Source of the DNA: an uncultured bacterium
GTDB lineage: Bacteria; Bacillota_I; Bacilli_A; RFN20; CAG-826
Direction: 5' to 3'
Length of the DNA stretch: 64,000 nt
Assembly (NCBI GenBank): GCA_949285665.1
Contig: CASDYC010000001.1
Location: 325,376 to 389,375, forward strand
A model generated the notes under the pieces. The model saw only the letters and a program-made list of their open reading frames with translations, was not told the DNA's origin and ran no database searches. Position 1 is the stretch's first letter. Each line of letters begins with the position of its first letter. A program made the position numbers and the translations under genes. Below are positions 29,322 through 45,814 of this stretch, in pieces.

Positions 29322-29365
29322 AAAAATTTTTTTTAAACTTTACAAAATACATTTAAATATTATTG

Positions 29366-30892
29366 ATGAAAGACGAATATTTTTATAATTTATACCAAAA
29401 AGATGGAACATACGAAACTTATTATTCTCTTTTTAAAAGTACGGCTAAATATTATGATAAAGTAACAAAAAAAGAAATGTATTTTAAAATAGTCAACTAT
29501 TTTAAAGAAGACCACGAACGAATATTGTATTTTTTAACTACTTCTTTAGTGAATTATTTAAAAAATTATGATAATAAAAAAGATAAAGAATTATCATCCA
29601 ATGATGATTTTATTAGATGCAAACTTTTTATAGAAGATTATATATACCAAGAAAAAAAAGAAATTTTAAATCCAGAATATGATTGGTTAATTTCATATAT
29701 TAAAAATAATTATTATAAAGCATTAGAAATTAGTGAATTTGTAGATTTTAATAAAGGTCTTCTTGATTTGTATGGAATTCTTACGAAAGAAGATATGTTT
29801 AAAATGTACAAAGATGCTTTCCCAGAATCAAAATTAAGTTTTAAAGAATACGATAAACAAATAACTAAATCTTATATTATTTTATTTGCGAATTATGGAA
29901 AAAAATATATCTATTATAAATGTATCGACAAACAATTTAATTTACGAAGGTATTTACAATCAATAAAAGATGCTTGCAAACATTATAATATTGTTGATTA
30001 TAAAAGATATTCTAAAGAACAAGTTCTTTCTTTTGCAAATAAATTTATGCTATTTCCAATAGAGATAGATGAGGATTCCTTTCAATTTTATTTAATATCT
30101 GATCATTCTCATTATTTTTCCTCACTTATGGATTTACCAGAACCAGATAGATTTTTTCAAGAAGAAAATGAAGATGAAAACGAAGATAAACTAAATGAGT
30201 ATTTACATATAAATTATAATACGCCTAAATGGCTATTAAAGGGTAATACGATTATCGACATAAAGGTATCTCAACATAATGATGAATTAGAAATTAATGA
30301 AGATATTAATGATGAAACAATATTTAAAGATAAAAATGAATATTTCAAATTTAAAAAATTAATTTGTGATTATTATGATTATTGTGCTAAAAAGATCATA
30401 CATAAAAAATTAAATCTTTATGATTTTGATAATGTCACAGGAAATGAAGAGGAAATAGTCGAACTTTTTGATAAAATAGCCGAAAAAAGCGATTATTATG
30501 TATCTTCGTTTATTAAAAGTGACGCAAGAATTTTAAATTATGATGATTATATTGTTTTAAATTCTTTAAGAGAATCAAGACGTTCATCTTATATAATTTT
30601 AGATATAAGCGAAGACGGTCTTATTCTTTTAGATTTTGAAAACGATGTACGTTTATTAGTAAAAGCTTTAGCGGTTCCATTTGTTGAATTATTCAAAACA
30701 AAAAATATATTAATTGATGTTACTTTAATTCCTTATAATGGAGTAATTACATACGATTCATTTTTACAACAAAACTTAATTGAAATGTCTCAAATTAATT
30801 TATCAAAAGATAAAATTGAAACTTATGATGAGTTGCAACTTTTGCAAACCGATGAAGAATTTTTAGAATTTTACAAAAATATTAAAAATTAA
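29366..30892 (+). CDS. Hypothetical 508-aa cytoplasmic protein next to tRNA-Ala
   Basis: Long intact ORF, very K/N/Y-rich, with no signal peptide or recognisable motif. The track start at 29363 is a TTG; the ATG is at 29366. Confidence 0.45.
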   Translation: MKDEYFYNLYQKDGTYETYYSLFKSTAKYYDKVTKKEMYFKIVNYFKEDHERILYFLTTSLVNYLKNYDNKKDKELSSNDDFIRCKLFIEDYIYQEKKEILNPEYDWLISYIKNNYYKALEISEFVDFNKGLLDLYGILTKEDMFKMYKDAFPESKLSFKEYDKQITKSYIILFANYGKKYIYYKCIDKQFNLRRYLQSIKDACKHYNIVDYKRYSKEQVLSFANKFMLFPIEIDEDSFQFYLISDHSHYFSSLMDLPEPDRFFQEENEDENEDKLNEYLHINYNTPKWLLKGNTIIDIKVSQHNDELEINEDINDETIFKDKNEYFKFKKLICDYYDYCAKKIIHKKLNLYDFDNVTGNEEEIVELFDKIAEKSDYYVSSFIKSDARILNYDDYIVLNSLRESRRSSYIILDISEDGLILLDFENDVRLLVKALAVPFVELFKTKNILIDVTLIPYNGVITYDSFLQQNLIEMSQINLSKDKIETYDELQLLQTDEEFLEFYKNIKN

Positions 30893-30902
30893 ACTATAAT
30901 TA

Positions 30903-31016
30903 TTAACTATAAATAAAAAAGAAAATCAAAAATAAAATTAAAAATGAAATAATTAAAAATATTCCAAAAATAATTAAATATTTCCACCAAGTCATCTTTT
31001 CAAAAAACTTTTTCAT
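30903..31016 (-). CDS. Putative 37-aa hydrophobic membrane peptide (MKKFFEKMTWWKYLIIFGIFLIISFLILFLIFFFIYS)
   Basis: Its ATG overlaps the TGA of the upstream 520-aa gene (ATGA). A single predicted TM helix. Below the ORF-track size cutoff. Confidence 0.3.
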   Translation of the reverse strand: MKKFFEKMTWWKYLIIFGIFLIISFLILFLIFFFIYS

Positions 31017-32575
31017 AAGTCAATTTTCCCATATGTCTCTTCATAATCAACATTTTTATCTAAATTTGGAATAATCATTTCTGGATTTTCACTTGGATCA
31101 TCATAATAAAAAGTTGAACTTCCATAACCTTTTGTTGGAACATTAGCACCAAATTTAGATTGTACTTCGTATTCTTCTCTTGTAATGTATTCAACAGGAT
31201 AAAAATCATTACTTAAAACCATTTTTAATCCAACTTTTGAAAAAATTGGAGCACCAACTTGTTGAATAATTGAAGAAGCACCCGGATAATCAGTTGTGCT
31301 TGTCATATATTTTGCATAATTATAAACACTACTTGGTGATAAGTTTAATGTCAAAATATAACCATCAGTAGTTTTTACAATTGCTGAATCAAATTTTTCA
31401 CCACAAATATCACTACTTTCATTTAACATATATGATGTATATAGTTGATAATTAATTAAATCAAATGGTTGAATTCCATAATCTAAAACATAATCACTGA
31501 TTGTAGTATCAACTTTTTGAGAATAATTAACGAAATCAGCTTTAAAATTACTTTCAACTTTATCACCATAAGAAAAATAAATTTCTAAATCATTATAATT
31601 ATCTTTATTTAAAATTCTTTGAGAATATTGAGCATTACTACTATATGAAATAACTTCTTTCATTAAATGATCATTATTTTTAATAAAACCAGTATTTGTA
31701 CTTTGAACATTTGTAATAAATGCAGCTGTTGATCGTGCTTCATTATAACTTTTAGCAAGATAATTTTCTTTTAAATTTTGAACTCTTAAAAAACTAATTC
31801 TTGCAAGATCAGCAATAGAAAACTTATTTAAAATTTCTTTGCTTGCTAAATTAATTTTTTCAATTTCACCATTATAATCATTTTCTAAAATTGATTGAAA
31901 TTCTGTATATTTATCATCTACAATCTCACCATCTTTTAAAAATTCTGGAAAAATCATTAAATCTTCACCATTTTCTGGTTTAAAAGTTCTAAAACTATAA
32001 CTTTCATCCTCATTATGGCAAAGAATAAATTCATTATTTATTAAAACTTTATTTAAATAATATCCATCGTATGGTTCAAATTCTAAATCAATTGTTCTAT
32101 AAGCGTGAACTTCTTTTTCTTCAAATTTTTCACCATTATAAAGTATTTTTGCTTCGCCGTTATATTCATTATCTTCTATATGAACGCTTACAAATTCATC
32201 TTTATCATAATCTTGAGAGCTAACTAATTTGTAAACTGGTTCAATTGTATTTTGACCTTCTTTTAAATTGAAATAAAAATACTTATCAGTATTTGGAATA
32301 TACTTTTGATCATTAATATTGACATAATCTAAAAAATATTTAGAACTTGATGAGGAAATTTTAAAGTCAATTTCTTGTCCAATTTCACCTTCATTTGAAC
32401 TTAGATTTATATCAAAATCATCATTTTCATTAATAACTAAAACCTTACATGGACTAATTTTACTAACTTCTTGTGGTTTTCGATACATAGTTCCAATAAA
32501 CCAGCCTGTAGTTCCACCAATTACAGTTCCTGCGAAAGCGGTTAATACACTAAAAATAATAGTTTCCTTTTTCAT
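31013..32575 (-). CDS. Hypothetical membrane-anchored extracytoplasmic protein (N-terminal TM/signal anchor)
   Basis: N-terminal hydrophobic helix (IIFSVLTAFAGTVIGGTTGWFIGTMY) followed by a 490-aa hydrophilic domain rich in Y/N/D/S. Confidence 0.5.
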   Translation of the reverse strand: MKKETIIFSVLTAFAGTVIGGTTGWFIGTMYRKPQEVSKISPCKVLVINENDDFDINLSSNEGEIGQEIDFKISSSSSKYFLDYVNINDQKYIPNTDKYFYFNLKEGQNTIEPVYKLVSSQDYDKDEFVSVHIEDNEYNGEAKILYNGEKFEEKEVHAYRTIDLEFEPYDGYYLNKVLINNEFILCHNEDESYSFRTFKPENGEDLMIFPEFLKDGEIVDDKYTEFQSILENDYNGEIEKINLASKEILNKFSIADLARISFLRVQNLKENYLAKSYNEARSTAAFITNVQSTNTGFIKNNDHLMKEVISYSSNAQYSQRILNKDNYNDLEIYFSYGDKVESNFKADFVNYSQKVDTTISDYVLDYGIQPFDLINYQLYTSYMLNESSDICGEKFDSAIVKTTDGYILTLNLSPSSVYNYAKYMTSTTDYPGASSIIQQVGAPIFSKVGLKMVLSNDFYPVEYITREEYEVQSKFGANVPTKGYGSSTFYYDDPSENPEMIIPNLDKNVDYEETYGKIDL

Positions 32576-32703: not shown

Positions 32704-32724
32704 GTTAGTGTTATGGAGGAAATT

Positions 32725-34698
32725 ATGAAAAATAAAAGAAATTTAGCTGTGTTGTTATTAACAGGAACAATGCTTTTAGGTGTAACATCATGCGGAGAAA
32801 CATCTTCTAGTTTAACAACACAAGGTGAAACTGACAAAAAATCAAGTATTGTAATATCAGATGGAATTGTTGGTGGAGAAGTTTCAGTTGTTGGCGATTT
32901 AACTGAAACAAATATTGGATCAGATATTACAATTACTGCTTTACCAGATTTTGGTTATGAATTATTAAACGTTACAGTTAACGGAAAAGTAATTGCTGGT
33001 ACATCTGACCAAACTTATTCTTATACAGTAGATAAAGAGATCACTCTAATTAATGCCAACTTTGAAAAAATTCAAGGAGAATCATTAGTCGAAATTAATG
33101 GCGATTCAAAAGTCGGAATTAATAAAACGATTCAATTAAGTGCTAATCTTTACGGAGCTGGAGGACAAGTAACTTGGGAATCGTCAAATAAAGAAAGAGC
33201 AACAGTTGATAAAAATGGTTTAGTTACTGGTATTAAAGCAGGATTTGTTCAAATTACAGCTACTTCTGTCTTAGATCCAGAAGCAACAGCAACTACTTCA
33301 GTATTTGTTATGCCAAAATATGTTGAAGATATGTTATCAACATTTGAAACTTATGATTATTCAAAAGGCGCAAATATTGCTGCTAGTATTGGTGTTCACT
33401 TAATGGGAAATGAAACACCAATGGCAATACCATTAAGTCTTGATTTACAATTTGATAAATCATTACAAGCTGCTGAATTATATAATAACTTAAAATTCCA
33501 TTTAAATATGGATCTATCAAATATTGGATTTATTTTAGGATTAGTTCCAAATGTTGGTGATTTATTAACTTCCGTTGGTCTTGATTGGAGCGTTGATTCA
33601 TTAAAAACTGCAACTAATGTAGATATTTATTCACTTCAACCAAACAAATTACAAACAACTGTTACAAGTAAATTAAATTCAACATTATATACATCAGAAT
33701 ATACAGAGGATTCTATTGGAAGATTGGCTGGAGAACTTGTTTTCTCGTTATTACCAACAATTTTAGGAATTTTACCATCTGATGGTAGTGATTCTTCAAC
33801 TAGTTTTGATTTAAATTCAATTCTTACTTTATTAGATTCAATTTTAATTTATGGAGAAAAAGCTGAAGATGGTATTTCTATATCTCCTATTATTATTGAA
33901 TTATTAAATACACAAATTTGGCCTTCTGTTTTAGATACTATTAAAACATCTGCAGGAGCAATGGGACCTTTAGCTTTAATGATGTTACCAGAAAGTATTA
34001 GTGAAGCAAGACTTATCTTTAATTATGATGAAAATAATAAATTTACAGGATTAAAATTAACAGTTAAAGGTTATTATTCTCACTCAGAAGATGAAAATCC
34101 AGAAGATTATAATAAGAGTTTTGTAACAATTACTTTAGATACACCAAAAGAAATGAGTAAAGATTTTGATACATTAGAAACAGAATTAAATCAAAAAATT
34201 GAAGAATATAATTCTGTACTTTCTTTAAAAAATGAATTTGCTGATGTTGAAAAATTTGTTGAAGACAATAAACTTTCTTCAACTTTTGAAAAAATTAAAA
34301 ATGAAGAATATATTGAAAAATTAACAAGTATTTGGCAAAGAGCTTATTCAAAAGAAGGATTATTTAGAGATACAACTGTAAGACCAATTGTTTCTTTAAA
34401 AATTATTGATCCTGAAACTCAAGCAGAAATGAGTGAAGATTTTACAATTTCTGCTGGAAAAACATATAACTACGAATTAACTTATTATGGTTTTCCAAGT
34501 GAAATTAATACAAATGAAATTACATTAAATTTCAAGAGTAACTATTTTAAATCAATTGACACGACAAATAAAACATTTACAACTGTTGATTCATTTGAAA
34601 ATGTCGATGAAAGTAATGTTACATTTACTGCAACATATACAACAAATACATCGTTTAAAATTGAAACTCCAACCTTTACATTTTTAACAGATTTATAA
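32725..34698 (+). CDS. Surface lipoprotein with a bacterial Ig-like (Big_2) domain
   Basis: Signal peptide plus lipobox LGVTSC. A Big_2-like segment (VTWESSNKERATVDKNGLVTGIKAGFVQITATS). The ORF-track start at 32713 is an RBS-embedded ATG. Confidence 0.7.
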   Translation: MKNKRNLAVLLLTGTMLLGVTSCGETSSSLTTQGETDKKSSIVISDGIVGGEVSVVGDLTETNIGSDITITALPDFGYELLNVTVNGKVIAGTSDQTYSYTVDKEITLINANFEKIQGESLVEINGDSKVGINKTIQLSANLYGAGGQVTWESSNKERATVDKNGLVTGIKAGFVQITATSVLDPEATATTSVFVMPKYVEDMLSTFETYDYSKGANIAASIGVHLMGNETPMAIPLSLDLQFDKSLQAAELYNNLKFHLNMDLSNIGFILGLVPNVGDLLTSVGLDWSVDSLKTATNVDIYSLQPNKLQTTVTSKLNSTLYTSEYTEDSIGRLAGELVFSLLPTILGILPSDGSDSSTSFDLNSILTLLDSILIYGEKAEDGISISPIIIELLNTQIWPSVLDTIKTSAGAMGPLALMMLPESISEARLIFNYDENNKFTGLKLTVKGYYSHSEDENPEDYNKSFVTITLDTPKEMSKDFDTLETELNQKIEEYNSVLSLKNEFADVEKFVEDNKLSSTFEKIKNEEYIEKLTSIWQRAYSKEGLFRDTTVRPIVSLKIIDPETQAEMSEDFTISAGKTYNYELTYYGFPSEINTNEITLNFKSNYFKSIDTTNKTFTTVDSFENVDESNVTFTATYTTNTSFKIETPTFTFLTDL

Positions 34699-34720: not shown

Positions 34721-34757
34721 AAAAACACTTCAATTGTCAAAATTGAAGTGTTTTTTT
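34721..34757. terminator. Bidirectional rho-independent terminator between convergent genes
   Basis: 15-bp perfect stem (AAAAACACTTCAATT/AATTGAAGTGTTTTT) with a 5-nt loop, flanked by T-runs on both strands. Confidence 0.75.
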
Positions 34758-34768
34758 ATCTATATTTT

Positions 34769-36235
34769 TTAGTTCTTGTTTTTTAAATATAATTGACGAT
34801 ATTGTTCAAATTTCTTTTGATAAATAATATGATTTTTTAAATTAGGCATATAAATATCTTTATCATGAACTAATTCATCACACGCTTCTTTTAAATATTT
34901 ATATTGTTTATCGCCATACATCGCAAGAATAATAGCACCAAGGGCACCACCATCAGAGGTTGAAATAGTTTTAATTTTAATTCCAAAAATGTCAGCTAAT
35001 AATTGCATCCATTTTTTATTTCTACTACCTCCACCAATAACTCTTGCTTCTTTAAAGTCAAGATTTAAATCTTTCATAATTGAAAAAACATCATATAAAG
35101 AATAAGAAATTCCTTCAACTACGGCTTTTGTCATATCTCCTCTTTTATATATGGCATTTAAATTTGCAAACATACCTTTGGCATTTGGATCATTAATTGG
35201 GGATCTTTCACCCATTAAATATGGTAAAAATAAGATATCATTCATATTATTAATGTCAACATTTTCAAATTCATCATCATAATTTTTGATATTTAAAACA
35301 TCTTTAAACCACCAATTAAGTGATCCTGCACAAGATAATGTGCAACCCATTAATAAAAATTTACCATTTGCATGTCTAAAGCTATGGATTCTTCCTAATT
35401 TATCATATGCATAATTATCAATGCTTGAAAATACGACACCAGAAGTTCCAAGAGAAATAAATAAATCATCATTTGAAATTGTTGCTGTTCCAATTGCACC
35501 AACTGCTTGATCTCCACCCCCAATTACAACTTTAGTTTTATTTGATAAACCACTTAATTTAGCAAATTCATCACTGACATTTCCTATAACATCATATGAA
35601 TTATAAATTACAGGTAATTGACTAGGATTAATTCCTAAAATGTCTAGCATTTTAATTGAGTAAACATTATTTTTTACATCAAAAAATAATGTTCCACTTA
35701 AATCAGATACATCACTTGCAAAAACTCCAGAAATTTTATAAGCAAGATAATCTTTTGGAAGCATTATCTTATTTATTTTTTTGAAATTTTCTGGTTCATT
35801 TTTTCTAAGCCATAAAATTTTTGGTGCAGTAAAACCACAAAGTGCGATATTTGATGTATATTCAATTAATTTATTTACACCAATTACTTTATTTAGATAA
35901 TCAACTTCTTTAACAGTTCTTGAATCATTCCATAAAATTGCTGGTCTAATAACTTTATCATTTTCATCTAAAACAACTAAGCCGTGCATTTGACCACAAA
36001 ATGATAAGCTTGCAACTTTTGATAAATCTACTTCTTTATTTAATCTTTTTAATACATTAATTAAGGCATTATACCAATCATCAGGATTTTGTTCAGTCCA
36101 ATTTTCATTAGGCATTAAAAGAGGGTAAGATTCACTCTCACTTAAAAGAATCTTACCCTTATAATCAGAAATGCTAACTTTTATAGATGAAGTTCCAAGG
36201 TCAATACCTAAATAATACTTGTCTATATTTTGCAT
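34769..36235 (-). CDS. xylB: Xylulokinase (FGGY family)
   Basis: N-terminal YLGIDLGTSSIK and FGGY C-terminal motifs. Directly downstream of xylA. The ATG is at 36235; the track start at 36253 is a TTG. Confidence 0.8.
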   Translation of the reverse strand: MQNIDKYYLGIDLGTSSIKVSISDYKGKILLSESESYPLLMPNENWTEQNPDDWYNALINVLKRLNKEVDLSKVASLSFCGQMHGLVVLDENDKVIRPAILWNDSRTVKEVDYLNKVIGVNKLIEYTSNIALCGFTAPKILWLRKNEPENFKKINKIMLPKDYLAYKISGVFASDVSDLSGTLFFDVKNNVYSIKMLDILGINPSQLPVIYNSYDVIGNVSDEFAKLSGLSNKTKVVIGGGDQAVGAIGTATISNDDLFISLGTSGVVFSSIDNYAYDKLGRIHSFRHANGKFLLMGCTLSCAGSLNWWFKDVLNIKNYDDEFENVDINNMNDILFLPYLMGERSPINDPNAKGMFANLNAIYKRGDMTKAVVEGISYSLYDVFSIMKDLNLDFKEARVIGGGSRNKKWMQLLADIFGIKIKTISTSDGGALGAIILAMYGDKQYKYLKEACDELVHDKDIYMPNLKNHIIYQKKFEQYRQLYLKNKN

Positions 36236-36242
36236 TTTCTTA

Positions 36243-37556
36243 TTATTTTCCAAACATTACTTCGTTTACAATAGTTTCTAAGTATTCTTGTCGACCACTT
36301 TCAACATTTATTTCATTATTATTTAAAGCATATTCTGCTAATTCTTTAAAATCAGTTGTGCCATCGACAATCTTTTTACCAATACCAGATTTATAAGAAT
36401 CATATCTATGATTTACAAAATCATCAATTCTTCCATCTTCGATTAATTTATATGCTAATCTTAAACCTAAAGCAAATGTATCCATACCAGCAATGTATGC
36501 TAATAAAATATCTTCTAATGTATTAGATGGTCTTCTAGTTTTAGCATCAAAGTTTAAACCACCATTTGTAAATCCGCCAGCTTTAATAACTTCATACATT
36601 GCATATAAAGCATTGTATACATCTGTTGGGAATTGGTCAGTATCCCAACCTAATAAATAATCGCCTTGGTTTGCATCAATACTACAAAATACACCATTAT
36701 CTCGAGCGACTCTTAATTCGTGTTGGAAAGTATGACCAGCAAGTGTAGCATGGTTTGCTTCAATATTAAGTTTAAAATCACCTAATAAACCATAAGTTCT
36801 TAAGAAGTTACAACAAGTTGCACTATCAAAATCATATTGATGTTTTGTTGGTTCTTTTGGTTTTGGTTCTAATAAATAATCACCTTTAAATCCAACACTT
36901 CTTCCATAATCTCTAGCCATTTTGAAAAATCTAGCTAAATTATCTTGTTCTAATTTCATGTTTGTATTTAAAAGTGTTTCATAACCCTCTCTTCCACCCC
37001 AAAATACATAAGCGGTTCCGCCAAGTCTAACATCTGCATCAATACATGCTTTAACTTTTGCAGCAGCAAGTGCAAATACATCAGCATTTGGAGAAGTTGC
37101 AGCGCCATTCATAAATACTTTATCACCAAAGTTATTAGCTGTTGACCATAATAATTTTTGAGAATGAGTTTCTTGTTTTTTAGCAAGATAATCAACCATA
37201 TGATTAAAATTAGCTAAAGTTTCTTTAAAATCTTTACCTTGTGGAGCAATATCAACATCATGGAAACAATAATAATCAATTGATAATTTGTCCATTAAAT
37301 CAAAAGCTAAATCTGCTTTTGCTTCATAAATTTTCATTGGATCTGTTTGTCCAAAGTTTTTATCTTCAGTTGGTCCGCCAAACATATCAACGCCACAATA
37401 ATCCATTGTATGCCACCATGAAAGAGCAAATTTTAAATGTTCTCTCATTTTTTTACCAGAAATTACTTCATCAGGATTATAAAATTTAAAACTGAATGGT
37501 TCTTTGCTAGTAGGACCTAAATATTCTACTTTTTTAATATCTTTATAACTTTTCAT
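36243..37556 (-). CDS. xylA: Xylose isomerase (class II)
   Basis: 437 aa with conserved blocks ([21 protein letters not shown], catalytic His/Asp). Confidence 0.9.
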
Positions 37557-37601: not shown

Positions 37602-39638
37602 TTATTTTCTATTTTTCATGATGTTGTTTAATCTCTCATTTAATTTAGAATCGACAGCATCTTTTTCTTTTACAGCTTTTTCTTCTTCTTGCTTTTTAAG
37701 TTCAGCTTTTTCAGCTTTTAATTTTTCGTTTTCAGCAAGTTTTGTTTTTCTTAATTCTTCTTTTTCATGGTCTTTTTGAATTTGAATTACATATTGATCT
37801 TCTTTTTCTTTATCAACTTCTTGTTGTTTTAAAATTAATTCGTCCATTTTTGTTTGATAAATATTTAAATCAGATTTATATGTTTCTTCTAATTTTGCAC
37901 TTCTAACTTTAATATCTTCTTTTTCTTTATTAAATTTAGTAGTTTCTTTTTCAAATACATTATTTATTTTTATTTTTAAGCTTTCATCATCTGCATAATT
38001 TAAAGCAAAATTTTTTAAGTGTTCGATTTGCTTTAAGCTAACACCAAGTTCATTTTGAAGTTTAAGAATGAATTTCTTAGTTTCATATTCTTGTTTCATT
38101 TGATCAAGAATTAAATCTTTTTCATATGAATAATATAAATTTAATCTTGGTGCTACTTCTTCTTTTTTGTTTTTTAATAAATATGTATTATATTGTTTTA
38201 AGTTAAGTAATTTAGCTTTTTTATCATTAATTTCTTCATTTAATTTTTCATCCTTATCATGGACTTCACGATAAACTTTTGCTTTTTCAATTAAAACAAT
38301 ATATTTATTATTTAACTTCTTTAATATAGTTTCTTTTTGATCTAATAATTCATTAATCTTTTTAACAATTTCTTCCTCGCTTAATTTTGTTGAATGATTA
38401 ACTTTATTAATTTTATTTTCAAAATCTTTTTCAACTTTTTCAACTTTATTCTTATATTCTGCATCTAATAATAGATCTTTATTTGGTACATAAATAAGAT
38501 TGAATTTCTGTAAGAAATAAATTGCTTTATCTTTATCAAAATGTAAAACTTGAATTAAAATAGCAATAATTAAGATTGCACCTTTAATTGCATCATTTAA
38601 GAATGGGTTTAAATTTAAAGCAGAAATAATTTTATCAATTGTTTGGAAAGCGGCGATACCAAAGATAACACCAATAATACTACCTTTACCACCAGTCATT
38701 GCGATACCACCTAAGACAACAGCAGCGATTGCAGAAAGTTCATAAGAATTACCAGTTGAAGAAGTATCTAAGTTACCTCTTGAGGCAATATGTAAGAAAC
38801 CTGCAAATCCAACTAATGCACCAGCAATTGAAAATACAAGGGTTTTAATCCAATTAGATTTAATACCAACTAAGGTTGCAGCTTTTGGATTACTACCAAC
38901 AGCATAAATTTTTCTTCCAAATTTTGTATATTTAGTCATTAACCAAATTAATACAGCAACAAGAATAAATAAAATAGTTGGAAGGGTAATTGAAGCAAAT
39001 TGTACAGCACCTAATTCTCTAACCCAGTTATTTAATCCTGGTCCATAATTTAACATGTTTAAAATTGAACCATTAACCCAACTTGAAGTTTCAGCAGTTG
39101 TTCTTGTAACATCACCAATGTATTGAGCAAAGCTTCTAAAAATTAATGTTGTTGCAAGAGTAACGATGAATGATGGCATTTTAACAATACCAACAAAAAA
39201 TCCGTTAATAAATCCAAATAATAAACCAGTACCAATTGATACTAGTAAACACACAAAGAAGCCAAGAGCTGTGTTCCCAAGTGCGACAATTACGTTGTTA
39301 TATGCAATAATTGATATTGTAATCGATAAAGCATACATACTACCAACCGATAAATCGATCTCACCAAGAAGAACAATCAATCCCATACCTACGGCAACAA
39401 TTCCAATAAATATGGATGATGAGAAAATGTTTGTAAATAAATTCCAGTTAAAGTATCTAATGGTTGAAAGAATATAAATAACTAAAACTACTAAGAAAAT
39501 GTAAAGATAATTAGCTTTTGACCAGGTCTTTTTAAAGAAACCTTTTGTTGCTTTACCAAATTCTTTTCCAGTTATTCTTCTTTGGAATGTCTCGTTATTA
39601 CCATAAAAGGAATCAGTAATACTAAAAGGATTAGTCAT
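37602..39638 (-). CDS. CUT2-family sugar ABC transporter permease (XylH/RbsC-like) fused to a K/E-rich coiled-coil C-terminal tail of about 330 aa
   Basis: The N-terminal ~350 aa form a polytopic permease with an EAA-like loop region. Residues from ~350 to 678 are uninterrupted charged heptad-like sequence (EKVEKDFENKINK...KLKAEKAELKKQEEEK). Confidence 0.75.
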   Translation of the reverse strand: MTNPFSITDSFYGNNETFQRRITGKEFGKATKGFFKKTWSKANYLYIFLVVLVIYILSTIRYFNWNLFTNIFSSSIFIGIVAVGMGLIVLLGEIDLSVGSMYALSITISIIAYNNVIVALGNTALGFFVCLLVSIGTGLLFGFINGFFVGIVKMPSFIVTLATTLIFRSFAQYIGDVTRTTAETSSWVNGSILNMLNYGPGLNNWVRELGAVQFASITLPTILFILVAVLIWLMTKYTKFGRKIYAVGSNPKAATLVGIKSNWIKTLVFSIAGALVGFAGFLHIASRGNLDTSSTGNSYELSAIAAVVLGGIAMTGGKGSIIGVIFGIAAFQTIDKIISALNLNPFLNDAIKGAILIIAILIQVLHFDKDKAIYFLQKFNLIYVPNKDLLLDAEYKNKVEKVEKDFENKINKVNHSTKLSEEEIVKKINELLDQKETILKKLNNKYIVLIEKAKVYREVHDKDEKLNEEINDKKAKLLNLKQYNTYLLKNKKEEVAPRLNLYYSYEKDLILDQMKQEYETKKFILKLQNELGVSLKQIEHLKNFALNYADDESLKIKINNVFEKETTKFNKEKEDIKVRSAKLEETYKSDLNIYQTKMDELILKQQEVDKEKEDQYVIQIQKDHEKEELRKTKLAENEKLKAEKAELKKQEEEKAVKEKDAVDSKLNERLNNIMKNRK

Positions 39639-41130
39639 TGTTTTCTACCTCCGTTTTGTTTGCGCTTGTTGCATAATACATGACTTTTTCTTCGGTAACT
39701 TCGTCATGATTAAGAATTTTTTCTATTGTGCCGTGATAGAAAACGCAACACCTATCAGCACATTTCATAATTTCTGGAACTTCTAACGTATTGAAAATAA
39801 TTGTTTTTCCTTGTTCAGCAAGTTCAAGAAGTAATTTATAAATTTCAGCTTTTGCGCCGACATCAATACCTTGTGTTGGATTATCAAGTAATAATATATC
39901 TGCATTAGTCTTTAACCAACGACCAATAATGACTTTTTGTTGATTACCACCACTTAAAGAAACAAGTAAATCATTACTAGAATTTGCTTTTATATTTAAT
40001 TGTTTTTTATAATTTTCATATAAAATTCTTTCTTTTTTTGGTGAAAAACCAATTTTACCACTAATACTATTGGAAGCAACTGATGTGTTATCTAAAATAG
40101 TTAATGAATCAAAGACAGAATTTTCTTTTCTATTTGAAGGAACCATTCCAACTTTATCTTTCATAACTTTTTTAATAGATTTATTTGTTAGTTGGTTATC
40201 AAATGCAATAGCATCTCCACTATTTGACTTTACAACTCCAAACATTGCTTGCATCAATTCACTACTTCCAGCACCTTGAAGTCCAGTAAAACCAATAATT
40301 TCACCTTTTCTAACTTCTAAATTAACATCATGAAATCCAGGTCCACTGTAATTAACTAATTTTAAAACTACGTCGCCTAGTTCTCTTTTTCGATAATAAT
40401 CTTTATTATCATATCCCTCACCAACAATATCTTTTGTAATTTGTTCTGGAGTAGTATCGCTTATTTTTCCACTAGATATACAATAACCATTTCTTAAAAC
40501 TGTATATTCATCACATAATTTGAAAATTTCTGGCATTTTATGTGAAATAAATATGAAGGTTTTACCGTGTTTTTTGAGGTTATTGATTATATTAAAGAAG
40601 TGGTCAATTTCTTCATTAGACAAAGCTGTTGTAGGTTCATCTAAAATAAACAAATCAGCATTAGCAAATAACGCTTTTGAAATTTCAAGTAATTGCTTTT
40701 TACCAGTTGATAAATTGGCCACTAAATCATTCGCGTCGATATCAACACCTAATTCTTTGAAAAGATTATTTGACTTTTCAATCATAGTTTTTGAATCGAT
40801 AAATCCAAATTTTTTAATTTCCTTAGTTATAAATATATTTTCATATACTTTTAAGTCGTTAAATAAATTTATTTCTTGGTGAACAAATGCAACACCTAAT
40901 TTTTCAGCTGCATTAACATTTAAGTTTCCGGTTTCTTTACCATCTATTTTAATAACGCCAGAATCTAATTGATAAACACCACCTAAAATATTCATCAATG
41001 TCGATTTACCAGCGCCATTTTCACCAATTAAAGCATGAATTGTGCCTTTTTTAACTTTTAAGGAAACATTATGCAAAACTTGAACACCAAAGAATGATTT
41101 GTTAATGTTGATCATTTCAAGTTTGAGCAT
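39631..41130 (-). CDS. Sugar ABC transporter ATP-binding protein with two nucleotide-binding domains (XylG/RbsA-like)
   Basis: Two Walker A sites (GENGAGKST and GLQGAGSSE) and two LSGG signatures. 499 aa. Confidence 0.85.
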   Translation of the reverse strand: MLKLEMININKSFFGVQVLHNVSLKVKKGTIHALIGENGAGKSTLMNILGGVYQLDSGVIKIDGKETGNLNVNAAEKLGVAFVHQEINLFNDLKVYENIFITKEIKKFGFIDSKTMIEKSNNLFKELGVDIDANDLVANLSTGKKQLLEISKALFANADLFILDEPTTALSNEEIDHFFNIINNLKKHGKTFIFISHKMPEIFKLCDEYTVLRNGYCISSGKISDTTPEQITKDIVGEGYDNKDYYRKRELGDVVLKLVNYSGPGFHDVNLEVRKGEIIGFTGLQGAGSSELMQAMFGVVKSNSGDAIAFDNQLTNKSIKKVMKDKVGMVPSNRKENSVFDSLTILDNTSVASNSISGKIGFSPKKERILYENYKKQLNIKANSSNDLLVSLSGGNQQKVIIGRWLKTNADILLLDNPTQGIDVGAKAEIYKLLLELAEQGKTIIFNTLEVPEIMKCADRCCVFYHGTIEKILNHDEVTEEKVMYYATSANKTEVENND

Positions 41131-41228
41131 TCTCTTTTCCCTCCTTTTTTAATAAATTGGAGGTCATATTTCATTATGACCTCCAATAATTTAATCTTTA
41201 ATTTATTTTATTTAATGTTATCTTACAA

Positions 41229-42314
41229 TTAGAATCCAAGATCGTAGAATTCATCAACGTTATCTTTATCAACTACATCAACTGGAACAACGTGATCATG
41301 ATTAGCAATCTTTGTACCATCTTTTAAATATGTAAGCATATCATCAATACCAGTTTTGATCATTGATGGTGGATATGTAACATCAAAGAAGTCAACATCT
41401 GCAACGTATCTATCAAATTCAGCTTGTCTTTCGTGTTGTCCTTTAATGACATCATACATTTCTTGTAAACCACTGGATGATGCAATAACTTCAACAGCTG
41501 TACCAAATGCTGTTTTTTCTTCTTCTGTTAAACCTGAATCTGGATTAACTAAAGCCTCAAGAATACCCATTGAACATTCTGAGTCATGTGTAAAGACACA
41601 TCTATAACCTGCTAATGTATTATCTTCAGCATAAGCAGCTTTTAACCAAGAAATGAAGTTTTGAGAAGCAGTTGCTCTTGACCAACCAGTACTTGGAGTT
41701 TGATCCCAAGCTGCTGTAATTTGTTCTTGTGTCCATCCAGCTTCTTTTAATGCTGTTTGGAAACCATCGTTTCTAGCAAGTGGAACTGATGAGTTATCAC
41801 CAGGAATAACTAAAATCTTATCTTGTCCTGCTGTTAAATCATAATGATCAATGAAATATTCAGCTGTTAATTCACCAATCATTTCGTTATTTCCACGAAC
41901 ATCACCAACCCAGTAGTCACTTTCTTTAATAATTGTGCTATCTGTAATGACTCTATCAACGACGACGAATGGAATATTAGCGTTTGCTAATGCTTCAACA
42001 CCTGGTTTAGCACTTGCGTCCCAAGGAAGTGTAACAACACCAGCAACAGTGTCTTTTCTTGCGACTAAGTCTTCCATTTGTTGATTCATTTCTTCTGAAT
42101 TACCAGAAGTTTGGACGACGAAGTTATATTCATAATCGCCACTTTCTTTTAATTCATTAGCATAGTCTCTAGCGTTACTTAAAATAGCACCAGTCCAACC
42201 ATGGTCAGCACTTGGAACTAAGATAACTAAATCTTTTTCGCCGCCACCACATGAAGCTAATCCGACAACCATTGCAGCAACTGCTAATGTGCCAAATAAT
42301 TTTGTTTTTTTCAT
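41229..42314 (-). CDS. Sugar ABC transporter substrate-binding lipoprotein (type-I periplasmic binding fold, XylF/RbsB-like)
   Basis: Lipobox LASCGG. Composition rich in A/G/D/T, unlike neighbouring proteins. Sits before the ATPase and permease genes. Confidence 0.75.
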   Translation of the reverse strand: MKKTKLFGTLAVAAMVVGLASCGGGEKDLVILVPSADHGWTGAILSNARDYANELKESGDYEYNFVVQTSGNSEEMNQQMEDLVARKDTVAGVVTLPWDASAKPGVEALANANIPFVVVDRVITDSTIIKESDYWVGDVRGNNEMIGELTAEYFIDHYDLTAGQDKILVIPGDNSSVPLARNDGFQTALKEAGWTQEQITAAWDQTPSTGWSRATASQNFISWLKAAYAEDNTLAGYRCVFTHDSECSMGILEALVNPDSGLTEEEKTAFGTAVEVIASSSGLQEMYDVIKGQHERQAEFDRYVADVDFFDVTYPPSMIKTGIDDMLTYLKDGTKIANHDHVVPVDVVDKDNVDEFYDLGF

Positions 42315-42389: not shown

Positions 42390-43538
42390 TTAATATTCAA
42401 CCCAAGTTCCCTTTTTAGCACTTTCAACCGCTTTATGGATAAATTTAACTCCATCAACACCATTTGAAACGTTTTGGAAATCTAGGTCTGCTTTTGTTAA
42501 TGTTTCACCATTTTTCTTCTTTAAAATTGTTGTGATAACATTACGATATATATTTGCAAAGGCAATTGTTAAACCTTCTGGATGTCCAACTGGAAGTCTT
42601 GATAAATTACCAGCATCATATTGTTTACTAACAGCTGAACCTCTAATCATAATTTGAGTTGCTCCATCAACTGGAGTGTAATGTAAGTAATCAGGATATT
42701 CTTGATTCCATTCAATTGCACCTTTGTCACCAAATACTCTAATAACTAAACCATTATAATGACCTAATGCAACTTGTGAACACCAAAGAGCTGCTCTAAC
42801 TCCACTATCATATTCAATGATCATATTTGAATTAAGATCAAGAGCCATGCCATAAGTATCAGTTGTTGCGATTAATCTTTTAATTTCAAATCCAGTTAAA
42901 TAGTGAACTAAATTTTCAGCATGTGTTCCAATATCGCCGATACAATTTGAAATTCCAGAATATTTTGGATCGCTTCTCCATACACTTAATGTTGTTGCTT
43001 TTTGATTCTTTGGATCAAGAGAAGAAACTAACCAGTCTTGAACATATTCAACATTGATTGAAACAATTTTTCCAATTTTTCCTTTTTCAATCATTTCTTT
43101 TGCAACTTTAACCATTGTATAACCAGTATATGTATAAGTAATTGCAAATACTAAGTTTCTTTCTTTAGCTATTTTTTCTAATTCAACAGCTTCTTCTTGT
43201 GTAAAACACAATGGTTTTTCACAAACAACATTAATATCATGAAGTAAAAATTCTTTAGCGATTTGATAATGTAAGAAATTTGGAGTACAAATTGATACAA
43301 AATCAATTTTATCTTCTCTTTGAGATTCTTTTTCAGCCATCTCTTTGTAATCTTTGTATGTTCTTGAAGGATCAACATTATAAGCTTCAGCTGTTTCTTT
43401 ACCTAGTTTTTCATCTGCTGAGAAACATCCAGCAACTAATTTTGCTCTTGTATCAAAATTAATAGCTTTTCTGTGAACTTCACCGATGAAAGCTTTTAAG
43501 TCTCCACCAACCATTCCATATCTTAATTGTTTAACCAT
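42390..43538 (-). CDS. Gfo/Idh/MocA-family NAD(P)-dependent oxidoreductase
   Basis: Rossmann fold near the N-terminus, a CEKP motif, and a C-terminal alpha/beta domain with a YVQDW/GDIGTH-type pattern. 382 aa. Confidence 0.8.
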   Translation of the reverse strand: MVKQLRYGMVGGDLKAFIGEVHRKAINFDTRAKLVAGCFSADEKLGKETAEAYNVDPSRTYKDYKEMAEKESQREDKIDFVSICTPNFLHYQIAKEFLLHDINVVCEKPLCFTQEEAVELEKIAKERNLVFAITYTYTGYTMVKVAKEMIEKGKIGKIVSINVEYVQDWLVSSLDPKNQKATTLSVWRSDPKYSGISNCIGDIGTHAENLVHYLTGFEIKRLIATTDTYGMALDLNSNMIIEYDSGVRAALWCSQVALGHYNGLVIRVFGDKGAIEWNQEYPDYLHYTPVDGATQIMIRGSAVSKQYDAGNLSRLPVGHPEGLTIAFANIYRNVITTILKKKNGETLTKADLDFQNVSNGVDGVKFIHKAVESAKKGTWVEY

Positions 43539-43577
43539 GTAATTTTCCTCTTTAATAAACTTTATTATTTATATTTA

Positions 43578-44576
43578 TTATTTTGTGTTTGAAATTGCAT
43601 CATCAAATTTTACGTTTGATGGTTCAAAGTCAACTTTTCTAACAAATGCACAAGCTTCAGTAGCACCAGAAATTCTTTCCATACCACTATCTTCCCATTC
43701 AACGGAGAGATTTCCATAATAATTATGTGCATTTAATACTCTAATAATTTCTTCAAAGTTTACATCACCATGACCAAGTGATCTAAAGTTCCAACCTCTT
43801 CTTAAATCACCAAAATCAATGTGTGAACCTAATAAACCAGTTCTTCCATCTAATCTGACTGCTGCGTCTTTCATGTGGATGTTATAAACTCTGTCAGCAA
43901 AATCATTTAAATAAACATGAGGGGTAACACCTTGCCATAATAAATGAGATGGATCAAATGTTAAACCAAATTCTGGTCTATCTTTAAATGTTTCAAGAAT
44001 ACGTTTTGCACTGTAATAGTCAAATGCAATTTCACCTGGGTGAACTTCTAATGCAAATTTAACCCCATTTTCTTTAAATACATCTAAAATTGGTAACCAA
44101 TCTTCTCTAACTTTTTTAAAACCTGCTTCAACCATTTCTTCTGGTGTTTGTGGGAAGCTATATAAATATCTCCAAATTGGTGAACCAGTAAATCCAGAAA
44201 TAACTTTAACACCTAATTTTTTAGCAACAACTGCTGCTTTTTTCATTGATTCAACAGCCCATGCGTGAATTTTTTCATGATCATTTGCACAACTTGCTGG
44301 TGCAAAATTATTTAATCTTGGATCATCTAAATCACTAACACATTGTCCAATAATATGTGTTGCAAGAACTGGTACAACTAAATCATATTTTTTTAGTGTA
44401 TCTTTAATAAATTTAATGTAATTTTCATCTTCGTATGCTTTATCTAAATCAAAAGCATTTCCCCAAACTGCTAACTCTAGACCATCATAGCCCATTTGTT
44501 TTGCGGTTTTACAAAGTTCTTCAAATGGTAAATCTGACCATTGACATGTAACTAAAGTAACTAATCTTTTTCCCAT
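43578..44576 (-). CDS. Xylose-isomerase-like TIM-barrel protein (sugar phosphate isomerase/epimerase, AP_endonuc_2 family)
   Basis: Metal-ligand pattern typical of the family (ALEVHPGE, HMKD, E...D). 332 aa. Confidence 0.75.
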   Translation of the reverse strand: MGKRLVTLVTCQWSDLPFEELCKTAKQMGYDGLELAVWGNAFDLDKAYEDENYIKFIKDTLKKYDLVVPVLATHIIGQCVSDLDDPRLNNFAPASCANDHEKIHAWAVESMKKAAVVAKKLGVKVISGFTGSPIWRYLYSFPQTPEEMVEAGFKKVREDWLPILDVFKENGVKFALEVHPGEIAFDYYSAKRILETFKDRPEFGLTFDPSHLLWQGVTPHVYLNDFADRVYNIHMKDAAVRLDGRTGLLGSHIDFGDLRRGWNFRSLGHGDVNFEEIIRVLNAHNYYGNLSVEWEDSGMERISGATEACAFVRKVDFEPSNVKFDDAISNTK

Positions 44577-44600: not shown

Positions 44601-45620
44601 TTAGTTATGTTGTGGAATAATACTTTCTTTTAGATAAATATTATTCTCATAAATTTTATCTTTAACATTACTTTCTTTAATTAAGTAATTAAATGCATTT
44701 TCAACTGATTTTAAACCTTGTGAGAATGCGTGTTGAGTTATTGTTGCAATAACTAAACCAGATTTTAATCCATCAACTACTTCTTTTGATTGGTCAACGG
44801 TAATAACATTTAAATCTTTATGTTTAGTCTCTTTTAATGCTTTTAATCCACCATTAATGCCGGCACCTAAATAACAAACAGCATCAACTTTTTTGGTATT
44901 AATTAGTTGTTTTGTAATATCGTAAGAAATTTGATCATTATCAAAATTTTCTTTAATAGTAGTTACTTTAATATTCTTATTTAGTACAGTTCTAAGACCT
45001 CTTAATCTCTCAATTTGACCAGAGTGTTCTAAACTTCCTAAAATAACAGCTATTTCTTTTTCTTCTTTTCTAAATAATACGTTGTAAATGTTTGCAGCTA
45101 GTGCACCGCAATTAAAATAATCACATCCAATAAAGCAAACTTTATTATTAACATCCAAATCAATATTAACAGCAATTTTTGGACATTGAAGTTCATTAAT
45201 TTTTTCACAAACTTTTGGATTATTTGGAGCCGTAACAATTAAAAAATCTAAATTTTCAGATTTTAATTCATCAACAGCTTTATATATTGTTTCAAAATTT
45301 AATAACTCAACTTCTTTAATAATAAATGTTAAACCATAGTCTTCATATTTTAAGATTCCATTTTTAATTCCATGTAAGACAAGATTAAAGAAATCATTAT
45401 TAATAGTTCCAATTATCACTCCGATATTAATGTTTCTTTTAGATGCAAGTCTTTTGGCGATAAAAGATTTTTCATAACCAGTGTCATGAATTACTTTTCT
45501 AATTCTTGCTTCGACATCTTTTTTAACTTTTCCTCTGTTGTTAATAACTCTATCAACAGTCCCTCTTGATGTTTGTGCCAATCTTGCAATCTCTTTAATT
45601 GTGACTTTTTGCTTTTCCAT
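44601..45620 (-). CDS. LacI-family transcriptional regulator, probably leaderless
   Basis: N-terminal HTH (VTIKEIARLAQTSRGTVDRVINN) and a C-terminal periplasmic-binding-protein-like sugar-binding domain. The ATG at 45620 lies 6 nt after a TATAAT with no SD. The track start at 45695 is a GTG inside the terminator hairpin. Confidence 0.75.
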   Translation of the reverse strand: MEKQKVTIKEIARLAQTSRGTVDRVINNRGKVKKDVEARIRKVIHDTGYEKSFIAKRLASKRNINIGVIIGTINNDFFNLVLHGIKNGILKYEDYGLTFIIKEVELLNFETIYKAVDELKSENLDFLIVTAPNNPKVCEKINELQCPKIAVNIDLDVNNKVCFIGCDYFNCGALAANIYNVLFRKEEKEIAVILGSLEHSGQIERLRGLRTVLNKNIKVTTIKENFDNDQISYDITKQLINTKKVDAVCYLGAGINGGLKALKETKHKDLNVITVDQSKEVVDGLKSGLVIATITQHAFSQGLKSVENAFNYLIKESNVKDKIYENNIYLKESIIPQHN

Positions 45621-45626
45621 ACAAGT

Positions 45627-45655
45627 ATTATAAATAAAAATGTAAACGCTTACAA
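45627..45655 (-). promoter_or_regulatory. Promoter (TTGTAA, 17 nt, TATAAT) for the LacI gene, overlapped by a cre-like palindrome
   Basis: Hexamers read on the minus strand; the -10 ends 6 nt before the ATG. Confidence 0.5.
45641..45654. promoter_or_regulatory. cre-like / LacI-family operator TGTAAACGCTTACA
   Basis: Matches the CcpA cre consensus TGWAANCGNTNWCA at every position. 13 of 14 positions are palindromic. Confidence 0.6.
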
Positions 45656-45660
45656 GAAAA

Positions 45661-45699
45661 ATGTGTGCGAGAACACAATTTTTTTGTTTTCGCACACAT
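45661..45699 (-). terminator. Rho-independent terminator after tRNA-Arg and polC
   Basis: 16/15-bp inverted repeat (ATGTGTGCGAGAACACAA ... TTGTTTTCGCACACAT) followed on the minus strand by TTTTTCTTG. Confidence 0.7.
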
Positions 45700-45737: not shown

Positions 45738-45814
45738 TGGCGCCCTAGATGCGACTCAAACGCACGACCTTTTTCTTAGGAGGAAAACGCTCTATTCAAC
45801 TGAGCTACTAGGGC
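45738..45814 (-). tRNA. tRNA-Arg (anticodon CCU), CCA encoded
   Basis: Manual fold of the reverse complement: acceptor GCCCUAG/CUAGGGC, D-arm GCUC..GAGC, anticodon arm UUUUC-CUCCUAA-GAAAA, T-arm GUGCG-UUUGAGU-CGCAU, discriminator G, CCA. Confidence 0.85.

Follow-up and report, generated by a model that had tools for sequence, protein, structure and literature searches.

We describe here a sugar operon in a 64-kb window (64,000 nucleotides, the whole stretch of DNA that was analysed) from a metagenome-assembled genome (MAG) with 25% GC and the standard genetic code. In this operon a TIM-barrel protein and a Gfo/Idh/MocA oxidoreductase are encoded side by side, together with an ATP-binding cassette (ABC) importer of the CUT2 type, the xylose isomerase XylA and the xylulokinase XylB. 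The reading that we favour, and to which we give about an even chance, is that the pair supplies XylA and XylB with D-xylose, which it makes from a C3-oxidised, xylo-configured compound of monosaccharide size or, through an intermediate of this kind, from a small xyloside. The operon thus suggests that a non-hydrolytic sugar pathway which is already known has an undescribed branch for pentoses. The two proteins on which this reading depends are encoded as follows:

42390 to 43538, minus strand: Gfo/Idh/MocA oxidoreductase of the 3v5n type, 382 residues (PF01408, PF22725 and PF02894)
43578 to 44576, minus strand: TIM-barrel protein of the SCO6571/AtHYD subfamily, 332 residues (PF01261, 7e-37)

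An earlier note, made from the sequence alone, had placed both open reading frames (ORFs) on the minus strand at exactly these coordinates and had suggested that they act in some kind of 3-keto-sugar route. This general idea was right, the nearest relatives being the hydratase AtHYD and the partner Gfo oxidoreductase of Agrobacterium tumefaciens. In a search against the PDB, the TIM barrel matched 2zds (SCO6571) at 7.9e-101 and 8ro4, the entry name of which is '2-hydroxy-3-keto-glucal hydratase AtHYD from A. tumefaciens', at 7e-49 over residues 19-327, while the next match followed at 3.8e-6. The identity amounted to ∼50% with 2zds and ∼30% with AtHYD. An AlphaFold (AF2) model of the protein (pLDDT 82) gave TM-scores of 0.84 against 2zds and 0.82 against 8ro4, and the other structures in the top 50, including UlaE, IolE, YcjR and ketose 3-epimerases such as DTE, reached at most 0.64. 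Over its full length, the resemblance to AtHYD-type proteins was clearly above that to other PF01261 enzymes, both in sequence and in fold. Within this group, the TIM barrel of the window belongs to the SCO6571/2zds subclade, which is sister to the AtHYD subclade. When 14 TIM barrels of the two subclades were aligned, 42 columns proved invariant, among them E177, H179, D208, H211, K236, D237 and E295, and by analogy with the superfamily the conserved Glu/His/Asp/Lys/Glu set is expected to form the metal (Mn2+) site. The TIM barrel is accordingly predicted to be a metal-dependent 2-hydroxy-3-keto-glycal hydratase, and it is possibly a lyase as well.

The oxidoreductase was most similar to 3v5n, a structural-genomics protein of Sinorhizobium meliloti (1.6e-94, ∼42% identity), followed by 7d5m (1e-69) and 3dty (5e-65); 7d5n was also matched. 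The A. tumefaciens oxidoreductase, 'Gfo Oxo', for which we took the sequence from Supplementary Table 6 of Bitter et al. 2023 (PMC10628242), was 39% identical to it over the full length (6e-85; the reference sequence was machine-read, with a few errors) and 61% identical to 3v5n. Throughout the oxidoreductases compared, K108-P109 with the lysine of the (E/D)KP motif and D202/H206 with the histidine of the GDIGTH motif were invariant. The protein is predicted to be NAD(H)-dependent and to act at sugar C3, as a 3-keto-sugar reductase or dehydrogenase. Direct reading of the sequences revealed a signal peptide neither on the TIM barrel nor on the oxidoreductase, and both are cytoplasmic proteins.

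The kinship with IolG/IolE-IolI, LgdA/LgdB1 and DgpA/DgpBC, with which the earlier note had compared the pair, turned out to be remote in every case. Among the NCBIfam models, levoglucosan dehydrogenase (LGDH; NF052479) gave only a partial match with the oxidoreductase at 104 bits (cutoff 650), IolG (TIGR04380) scored 52 bits (cutoff 355) and the BT_2158 family 42 bits (cutoff 750), and the TIM barrel scored 52 bits against IolE (cutoff 290). The corresponding PDB matches of the oxidoreductase were in the range of 1e-20 or weaker, with 1.7e-20 over 143 residues for the LGDH structure 6a3f and 2e-7 to 2e-6 for the DgpA structures, and IolE was found with the TIM barrel at 8e-4. No DgpB/C-like match and no DUF6379 was detected, so the two-subunit C-C lyase that characterises C-glycoside cleavage is lacking here.

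What the pair does resemble has been studied in A. tumefaciens, where one operon encodes a glycoside 3-dehydrogenase (GlycDH), the lyase AtOGE, AtHYD and the Gfo oxidoreductase (Bitter et al. 2023, PMC10628242). Incubation of 3-keto-phlorizin with AtOGE, AtHYD, Gfo and NADH yielded glucose, and the authors ascribed to AtHYD the step from 2-hydroxy-3-keto-glucal to 3-keto-glucose, a hydration, and to Gfo the reduction that ends the sequence (PMC10628242). Judged by its sequences, the pair of the window is homologous to this experimentally tested adjacent pair, with ∼30% identity for the TIM barrel and 39% for the oxidoreductase, and this homology is established. The two loci share full-length homologues of both proteins, their adjacency, their cytoplasmic location and, presumably, hydration followed by an NADH-dependent reduction at C3. 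They differ in that the window has neither an FAD-dependent glycoside 3-dehydrogenase nor an OGE-type lyase, and carries a CUT2 importer and XylA/XylB instead; moreover, its TIM barrel is of the sister subclade and its product is presumably a pentose rather than glucose. The pair, which the earlier note had made out to be more of an orphan than it is, thus belongs to a recently characterised module (AtHYD, 8ro4, and its partner Gfo), and these closest characterised relatives that note had missed.

The genomic contexts of relatives supported the assignment as hydratase and reductase. Among 80 species-level GTDB loci of the 2zds-type TIM barrel that were scanned, a 3v5n-type Gfo was adjacent in 28 and an LGDH/4h3v-type Gfo in 10; a CUT2 ATPase was encoded in 18, a DUF1080 protein in seven and an OGE-like TIM barrel in four. 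The 2zds-type TIM barrel occupied the hydratase position in Deinococcus aetherius, beside GH3, a GMC oxidase, a small TIM barrel and a Gfo, as well as in Novosphingobium, beside a GMC oxidase, a transporter of the major facilitator superfamily (MFS), a Gfo and a C-glycoside-lyase-like pair formed by a DUF6379 protein and a 'xylose isomerase'. The TIM barrels of these two loci, each of which combines a GMC glycoside oxidase, a lyase and a Gfo, were 44-47% identical to that of the window. In Pseudoalteromonas, neither the 3v5n-type Gfo nor the AtHYD-type TIM barrel next to it has a signal peptide. The two adjoin an MFS transporter, and on its far side are encoded DUF1080, a small TIM barrel and a GMC dehydrogenase together with its small subunit. 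Signal peptides were present on the DUF1080 protein, the GMC small subunit and the small TIM barrel, and this layout implies that an oxidised sugar reaches the pair across the membrane.

We also considered the Gfo partners in Deinococcus, Novosphingobium and Arthrobacter as orthologues of the window's oxidoreductase, and rejected them at an identity of only 24-27%; the Arthrobacter protein falls into the 4h3v/LGDH clade. Two further loci are recorded for their architecture. In an Oscillospiraceae MAG (locus L029, 6309-14026) the pair has neither transporter nor xylAB and is flanked by Mutator-family, rve and IS110 transposase genes, which suggests that the TIM/Gfo pair can move as a unit. The A. 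tumefaciens plasmid pAtCFBP6626a (locus L018, 3886-12234) carries a ROK regulator, a small TIM barrel, a CUT2 importer with an inserted Gfo gene and an ABM monooxygenase, followed by an AtHYD-type TIM barrel and a 3v5n-type Gfo, and thereby presents another uncharacterised architecture around the pair.

On the minus strand of the window, the gene order is LacI regulator, TIM barrel, Gfo/Idh/MocA oxidoreductase, substrate-binding protein (SBP), ATPase and permease of the CUT2 importer, XylA and XylB. ORFs, Pfam and the NCBIfam equivalog models for XylA and XylB bore out the gene identities and the operon layout of the earlier note, and these identities are established. Apart from the pair, the elements of the operon are, from its upstream end:

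45641 to 45654, minus strand: palindrome TGTAAGCGTTTACA resembling a catabolite-responsive element (cre) or LacI operator, an exact match that overlaps the -35 hexamer; putative function
45627 to 45655, minus strand: promoter-like site TTGTAA-17-TATAAT ahead of the LacI gene; putative function
44601 to 45620, minus strand: LacI-family regulator, 339 residues from the ATG at 45620 (PF00356 and PF13407)
41229 to 42314, minus strand: lipoprotein SBP of the CUT2 ABC importer (PF13407)
41156 to 41187, no strand assigned: perfect 13-bp stem-loop between the SBP and ATPase genes
39631 to 41130, minus strand: double-cassette ABC ATPase of the monosaccharide (CUT2) type (PF00005, twice)
37602 to 39638, minus strand: CUT2 permease (BPD_transp_2, residues about 30-370)
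36243 to 37556, minus strand: xylose isomerase XylA, class II (TIGR02630, 671.8 bits against a cutoff of 533)
34769 to 36253, minus strand: xylulokinase XylB (TIGR01312, 528.5 bits against a cutoff of 380)
34721 to 34755, no strand assigned: bidirectional terminator-like hairpin with a 15-bp stem and a T tract, closing the operon

Since the genes are separated by only 24-98 bp or overlap, and since the sole terminator-like hairpin with a T tract on the operon strand lies directly past xylB (34721-34755), it is plausible that all eight genes are co-transcribed as a single transcript. The start of xylB is a TTG at 36253, and the MAG gene call has an alternative at 36235. For the LacI regulator, which reached no NCBIfam equivalog cutoff, the mechanical ORF extends to a GTG at 45695; the MAG gene call and the homologues are at 332-339 residues.

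The earlier note had called for a neighbourhood search with this block of genes, and the same eight genes indeed recurred in many Bacillota, in other metagenomic as well as isolate genomes and with wholly different flanks, which establishes the conservation of the linkage. Carriers include Oscillospiraceae and Flavonifractor porci. Compared with the window, their TIM barrels were 72-82% and their oxidoreductases 62-80% identical, at a GC content of the locus ranging from 30 to 59%; taken over the many Bacillota with the block, it spans 25-59%. In an Acholeplasmataceae MAG, a divergent ROK regulator replaces LacI while the seven genes that follow are the same, and the order is rearranged to Gfo-TIM-ABC-XylA in a Halanaerobiales MAG and to LacI-xylA-TIM-Gfo-CUT2 ABC in Pseudosulfitobacter. 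In S. meliloti, LacI-xylB-xylA is followed in turn by an AtHYD orthologue (2.4e-181 to 8ro4), 3v5n itself and GH1. In two loci XylA has been displaced by an unrelated enzyme, in Lentihominibacter by an isomerase of the FucI/AraA fold and in an uncultured Bacilli MAG by a TIM barrel resembling RhaI or actinobacterial XylA. The neighbouring kinases of both loci nevertheless passed the XylB equivalog cutoff (565 and 581 bits, respectively, against 380). That both loci have kept the xylulokinase after exchange of the isomerase speaks for a pair that supplies an aldopentose, which is then isomerised to D-xylulose. The earlier suggestion that a xylose-related compound of monosaccharide size is funnelled to XylA/XylB thus gains support from a linkage with xylulokinase that spans phyla and persists even with non-orthologous isomerases. 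As a separate observation, one record among these loci (L016; CP090106.1, 3,222,273-3,241,415) is labelled 'plasmid pSymB', yet it measures 3.7 Mb and carries xylAB, and is probably a mislabelled S. meliloti chromosome.

The importer offers a second line of evidence. XylA and XylB reach equivalog level, and a binding protein of the XylF type is missing, since none of the NCBIfam SBP models, that for XylF included, matched the SBP of the window. Its sole relative in the PDB was 4joq (2.8e-17, partial), and the best NCBIfam matches of the ATPase (AraG, AlsA and XylG) all remained below cutoff. Near its N terminus the SBP carries the motif ADHGWTG, which is common to SBPs adjoining the pair in alpha-proteobacteria; in the form A(D/T)HGW(T/A)G it occurs in pair-adjoining SBPs of both Bacillota and alpha-proteobacteria, and the SBPs of Pseudosulfitobacter and Azospirillum are 22-27% identical to that of the window. 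As the SBP is not XylF-like and falls into a motif subfamily of its own, the transporter seems to be dedicated to the substrate of the pair rather than to be a standard xylose system. The permease itself has a C-terminal extension of ∼300 residues (37602-38498, minus strand) that is K/E-rich and coiled-coil-like and has a GC content of 21%; a comparably long tail is present in one homologue (L003, 646 residues) and absent from two others (L103, 408 residues; L109, 332 residues).

These data bear directly on the explanation that competes best with ours, although we consider it unlikely, namely that this is an ordinary D-xylose operon. The importer would then bring in D-xylose for catabolism by XylA and XylB, and the pair would be accessory rather than upstream of XylA, handling 3-keto sugars or glycals of gluco configuration, like its A. 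tumefaciens counterpart, or clearing a reactive by-product. In line with this, XylA and XylB are canonical equivalogs, the product of the characterised pair is glucose, the divergent regulator of the Acholeplasmataceae locus belongs to the ROK family, which includes the Firmicute XylR, and in S. meliloti no transporter accompanies the pair, whose neighbours are xylAB and a GH1 beta-glucosidase. An ordinary xylose operon does not account, however, for an SBP that lacks a XylF match, forms its own subfamily and accompanies the pair even where xylAB is absent (Azospirillum, Blautia schinkii). Inside the operon, furthermore, the pair is invariably placed between regulator and transporter, and loci that retain a xylulokinase although the isomerase has been exchanged are better explained by a dedicated route. 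With the canonical xylFGH-xylAB operon, the window shares true XylA/XylB equivalogs and a CUT2-type importer; it differs in that the SBP is not XylF and that two extra enzymes are encoded between regulator and transporter.

For the conversion to D-xylose that we favour, we infer the activities in this organism, the pentose configuration and the substrate as follows. The ABC importer would take in a xylo-configured compound of monosaccharide size. In the cytoplasm, the TIM barrel would add water over the C1=C2 double bond of a 2-hydroxy-3-keto-glycal to give a 3-keto-aldopentose, and it may also form the glycal itself by beta-elimination from a 3-keto-glycoside. The oxidoreductase would reduce the 3-keto-aldose at C3 with NADH, most likely to D-xylose, which XylA would isomerise and XylB phosphorylate to xylulose 5-phosphate. 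Two versions are conceivable. In version (a), the imported compound would already be oxidised, being a 3-keto-pentose or its glycal that was produced extracellularly. In version (b), a small xyloside or an anhydro-pentose would be imported and first be oxidised at C3 by the same oxidoreductase. Because the oxidoreductase would be recycled in the last step, version (b) would be redox-neutral and oxygen-independent, which would suit an anaerobe. Precedents exist for both of the dual roles that this would demand: elimination and hydration by one TIM barrel are known from LgdB2 (PMC7676230) and the AL/BT enzymes (bioRxiv 2024.03.25.586180), and oxidation of glycosides at C3 together with 3-keto reduction by one Gfo from AL3/BT3 (bioRxiv 2024.03.25.586180).

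Several observations weigh against this proposal. The characterised pair gives glucose and not xylose, and at identities of ∼30-39% the substrate, and even the type of reaction, can shift in both superfamilies. Neither a glycoside 3-dehydrogenase or oxidase (GMC/FAD or LgdA/DgpA type) nor a dedicated lyase (OGE, LgdB1, DUF1080 or CGD) is encoded in the operon, and none was detected in the 64-kb window; relatives in other phyla do possess such genes. With respect to version (b), AtHYD failed to cleave 3-keto-phlorizin (PMC10628242), a result that bears on the AtHYD subclade; with respect to version (a), our literature search yielded no report of free 3-keto-pentoses, 3-keto-xylose or 3-keto-xyloside. 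Lastly, a linkage to xylAB is common without being general: Blautia schinkii combines the pair with the ABC system but lacks xylAB, in Epulonipiscium the pair stands by itself, many Planctomycetota possess only the TIM barrel, and in Paracoccus alcaliphilus a pair 42% identical to that of the window sits in an iol cluster.

A more far-reaching interpretation, which we advance only tentatively, is that with this operon the oxidative, non-Koshland '3-keto' pathway has its first branch for a pentose, xylose, which would serve either a two-enzyme release of D-xylose inside the cell or scavenging. In the first form, a self-contained, redox-neutral and oxygen-independent pair would free D-xylose from small xylosides or anhydro-pentoses and would thus act as a non-Koshland xylosidase. 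In the second form, gut Bacillota would import C3-oxidised pentoses or glycals released by neighbouring bacteria, which would amount to cross-feeding on oxidised sugars.

Conceivably, the pair could instead constitute an epimerase system like YcjS/YcjR of Escherichia coli that makes the D-xylose for XylA and XylB from a different pentopyranose (L-arabinose, D-lyxose or D-ribose), but we regard this as improbable. The oxidoreductase would oxidise C3, the TIM barrel would invert C2 or C4 via an enediolate, and reduction would follow. Such a system resembles the window in combining a Gfo/Idh/MocA 3-dehydrogenase with a PF01261 TIM barrel that acts alpha to the C3 keto group, and deprotonation at this position is common to hydratases and lyases. 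In addition, YcjR, a 3-keto-glucoside 4-epimerase, and the ketose 3-epimerases of the TIM superfamily are the next structural neighbours (TM-scores of 0.6-0.64), a free pentose suits a CUT2 importer, and reversible dehydration and rehydration would scramble C2. The TIM barrel is, however, far nearer to AtHYD (TM-score 0.82, 7e-49) than to YcjR, with which it has a TM-score of 0.64, ∼17% identity and no sequence match; the Zn-dehydrogenase YcjQ has no counterpart in the window, and direct evidence for epimerase activity in the AtHYD/SCO6571 subfamily is lacking. An inositol-type dehydrogenase with an inosose isomerase or dehydratase (IolG/IolW with IolE/IolI-like proteins) is very improbable, for although 3v5n and 3dty group with scyllo-inositol dehydrogenase in a published tree, the 42%-identical pair lies within the iol cluster of P. 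alcaliphilus and the TIM barrel has weak IolE matches, the scores against IolG (52 bits, cutoff 355) and IolE (52 bits, cutoff 290) are low, iolB, iolC, iolD and iolJ are absent from the scanned window and inositol catabolism does not need XylA/XylB.

The window scan took in ORFs of at least 150 residues; none of the scanned ORFs matched the iol, lgd or dgp accessory families, which is in agreement with the absence of known-pathway accessory genes noted earlier. The orthology to iolG/iolE together with remaining iol genes that had been named as a refuting outcome was likewise not found, IolG and IolE being below cutoff and the scanned window free of iol genes.

Two further 3-keto systems invite comparison with the conversion to D-xylose proposed here. 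The levoglucosan pathway of Bacillus smithii (LgdA/LgdB1/LgdB2/LgdC; Kuritani et al. 2020, PMC7676230) follows the same logic of oxidation, elimination, hydration and reduction, and its locus likewise has a LacI regulator and an ABC importer. Its hydratase LgdB2 has ∼325 residues, depends on Mn2+, is also a weak lyase and adjoins the Gfo-family reductase LgdC (PMC7676230). In contrast, the oxidoreductase of the window is not an LgdA equivalog (104 against 650 bits), LgdB1 and a second TIM barrel are missing, and XylAB is not part of the lgd locus. The broad-specificity pathway of Bacteroides and Alistipes (BT2156-2160/AL1-AL4; Nasseri et al., bioRxiv 2024.03.25.586180) also relies on C3 oxidation by a Gfo that is recycled by reduction of the 3-keto sugar, and on metal-dependent lyase/hydratases with dual activity. 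It is, however, periplasmic, uses a DUF1080 lyase/hydratase, is remote in sequence (BT_2158 family, 42 against 750 bits) and acts on di- and oligosaccharides and thioglycosides. The closest solved structures remain SCO6571 (2zds) and S. meliloti 3v5n, at about 50% and 42% identity. For neither of them did PDB names or the searchable literature provide a functional characterisation, and 3v5n is encoded next to an AtHYD orthologue and xylA-xylB in S. meliloti.

To our knowledge, the cleavage of glycosidic bonds by oxidation, elimination, hydration and reduction, as worked out between 2020 and 2024, has so far involved only gluco-, manno- and glucurono-configured substrates. Our literature search found no paper that joins Gfo, sugar phosphate isomerase, 3-keto and xylulokinase. 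Within the literature searched, where no paper ties these enzymes to xylulokinase or 3-keto-xylose, the earlier note's claim that this set of genes is unmatched by any characterised pathway therefore still stands. The enzyme module itself has already been characterised (2020-2024); what none of the papers searched describes is its conserved connection with xylose isomerase, xylulokinase and a CUT2 importer of its own. This operon, which is highly conserved in many gut and environmental Bacillota (Oscillospiraceae, Flavonifractor, Acholeplasmataceae) and rearranged in rhizobia and roseobacters, joins the hydratase/reductase half of the 3-keto route to the formation of xylulose 5-phosphate and to a binding-protein family of its own. 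Identification of the substrate would extend the 3-keto pathway to pentoses, would provide a function for thousands of genes annotated as 'sugar phosphate isomerase/epimerase' and 'Gfo/Idh/MocA oxidoreductase', and would explain two orphan crystal structures (2zds and 3v5n).

With regard to expression of the operon, the -10 hexamer TATAAT (45632-45627) of the promoter-like site ends 6 nt ahead of the ATG of the LacI gene (45620), and the mRNA of the regulator and the operon may therefore be leaderless. For the cre-like palindrome, 0.39 matches with at most two mismatches would be expected by chance. It did not recur ahead of the homologous operons of nine other loci and, being unconserved there, is not claimed as a family-wide operator. 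The 13-bp stem-loop between the SBP and ATPase genes may act as an mRNA-stabilising or attenuating element within the operon. Stem-loops after a binding-protein gene are frequent where the binding protein is made in excess.

The surroundings of the operon in the window are a housekeeping backbone of the Bacilli type, with dprA-topA-trmFO-xerC, rpsB-tsf-pyrH-frr-uppS-cdsA-dxr-rseP-polC, F-ATPase, addAB, priA and glpK, and a few ORFs were without a Pfam match. The GC content climbs to 0.31-0.32 across the TIM/Gfo pair. A recent horizontal acquisition of the operon was considered and rejected, as its GC content at third codon positions (GC3, 0.12-0.18) is near that of the housekeeping genes (0.08-0.11) and compositional evidence is lacking. 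The operon is inserted into the backbone directly after a tRNA-Arg(CCT) gene (45738-45814, minus strand), which lies between polC and the sugar operon, yet its GC3 matches that of the genome. This tRNA gene is followed by a hairpin with an 11-bp stem (AATGTGTGCGA...TCGCACACATT). At the other end of the operon, a 661-residue lipoprotein with Big_2/InlB repeats (32713-34698) is convergent with xylB and adjoins two ORFs without a Pfam match, each of ∼510-520 residues (29363-30892, plus strand, and 31013-32575, minus strand).

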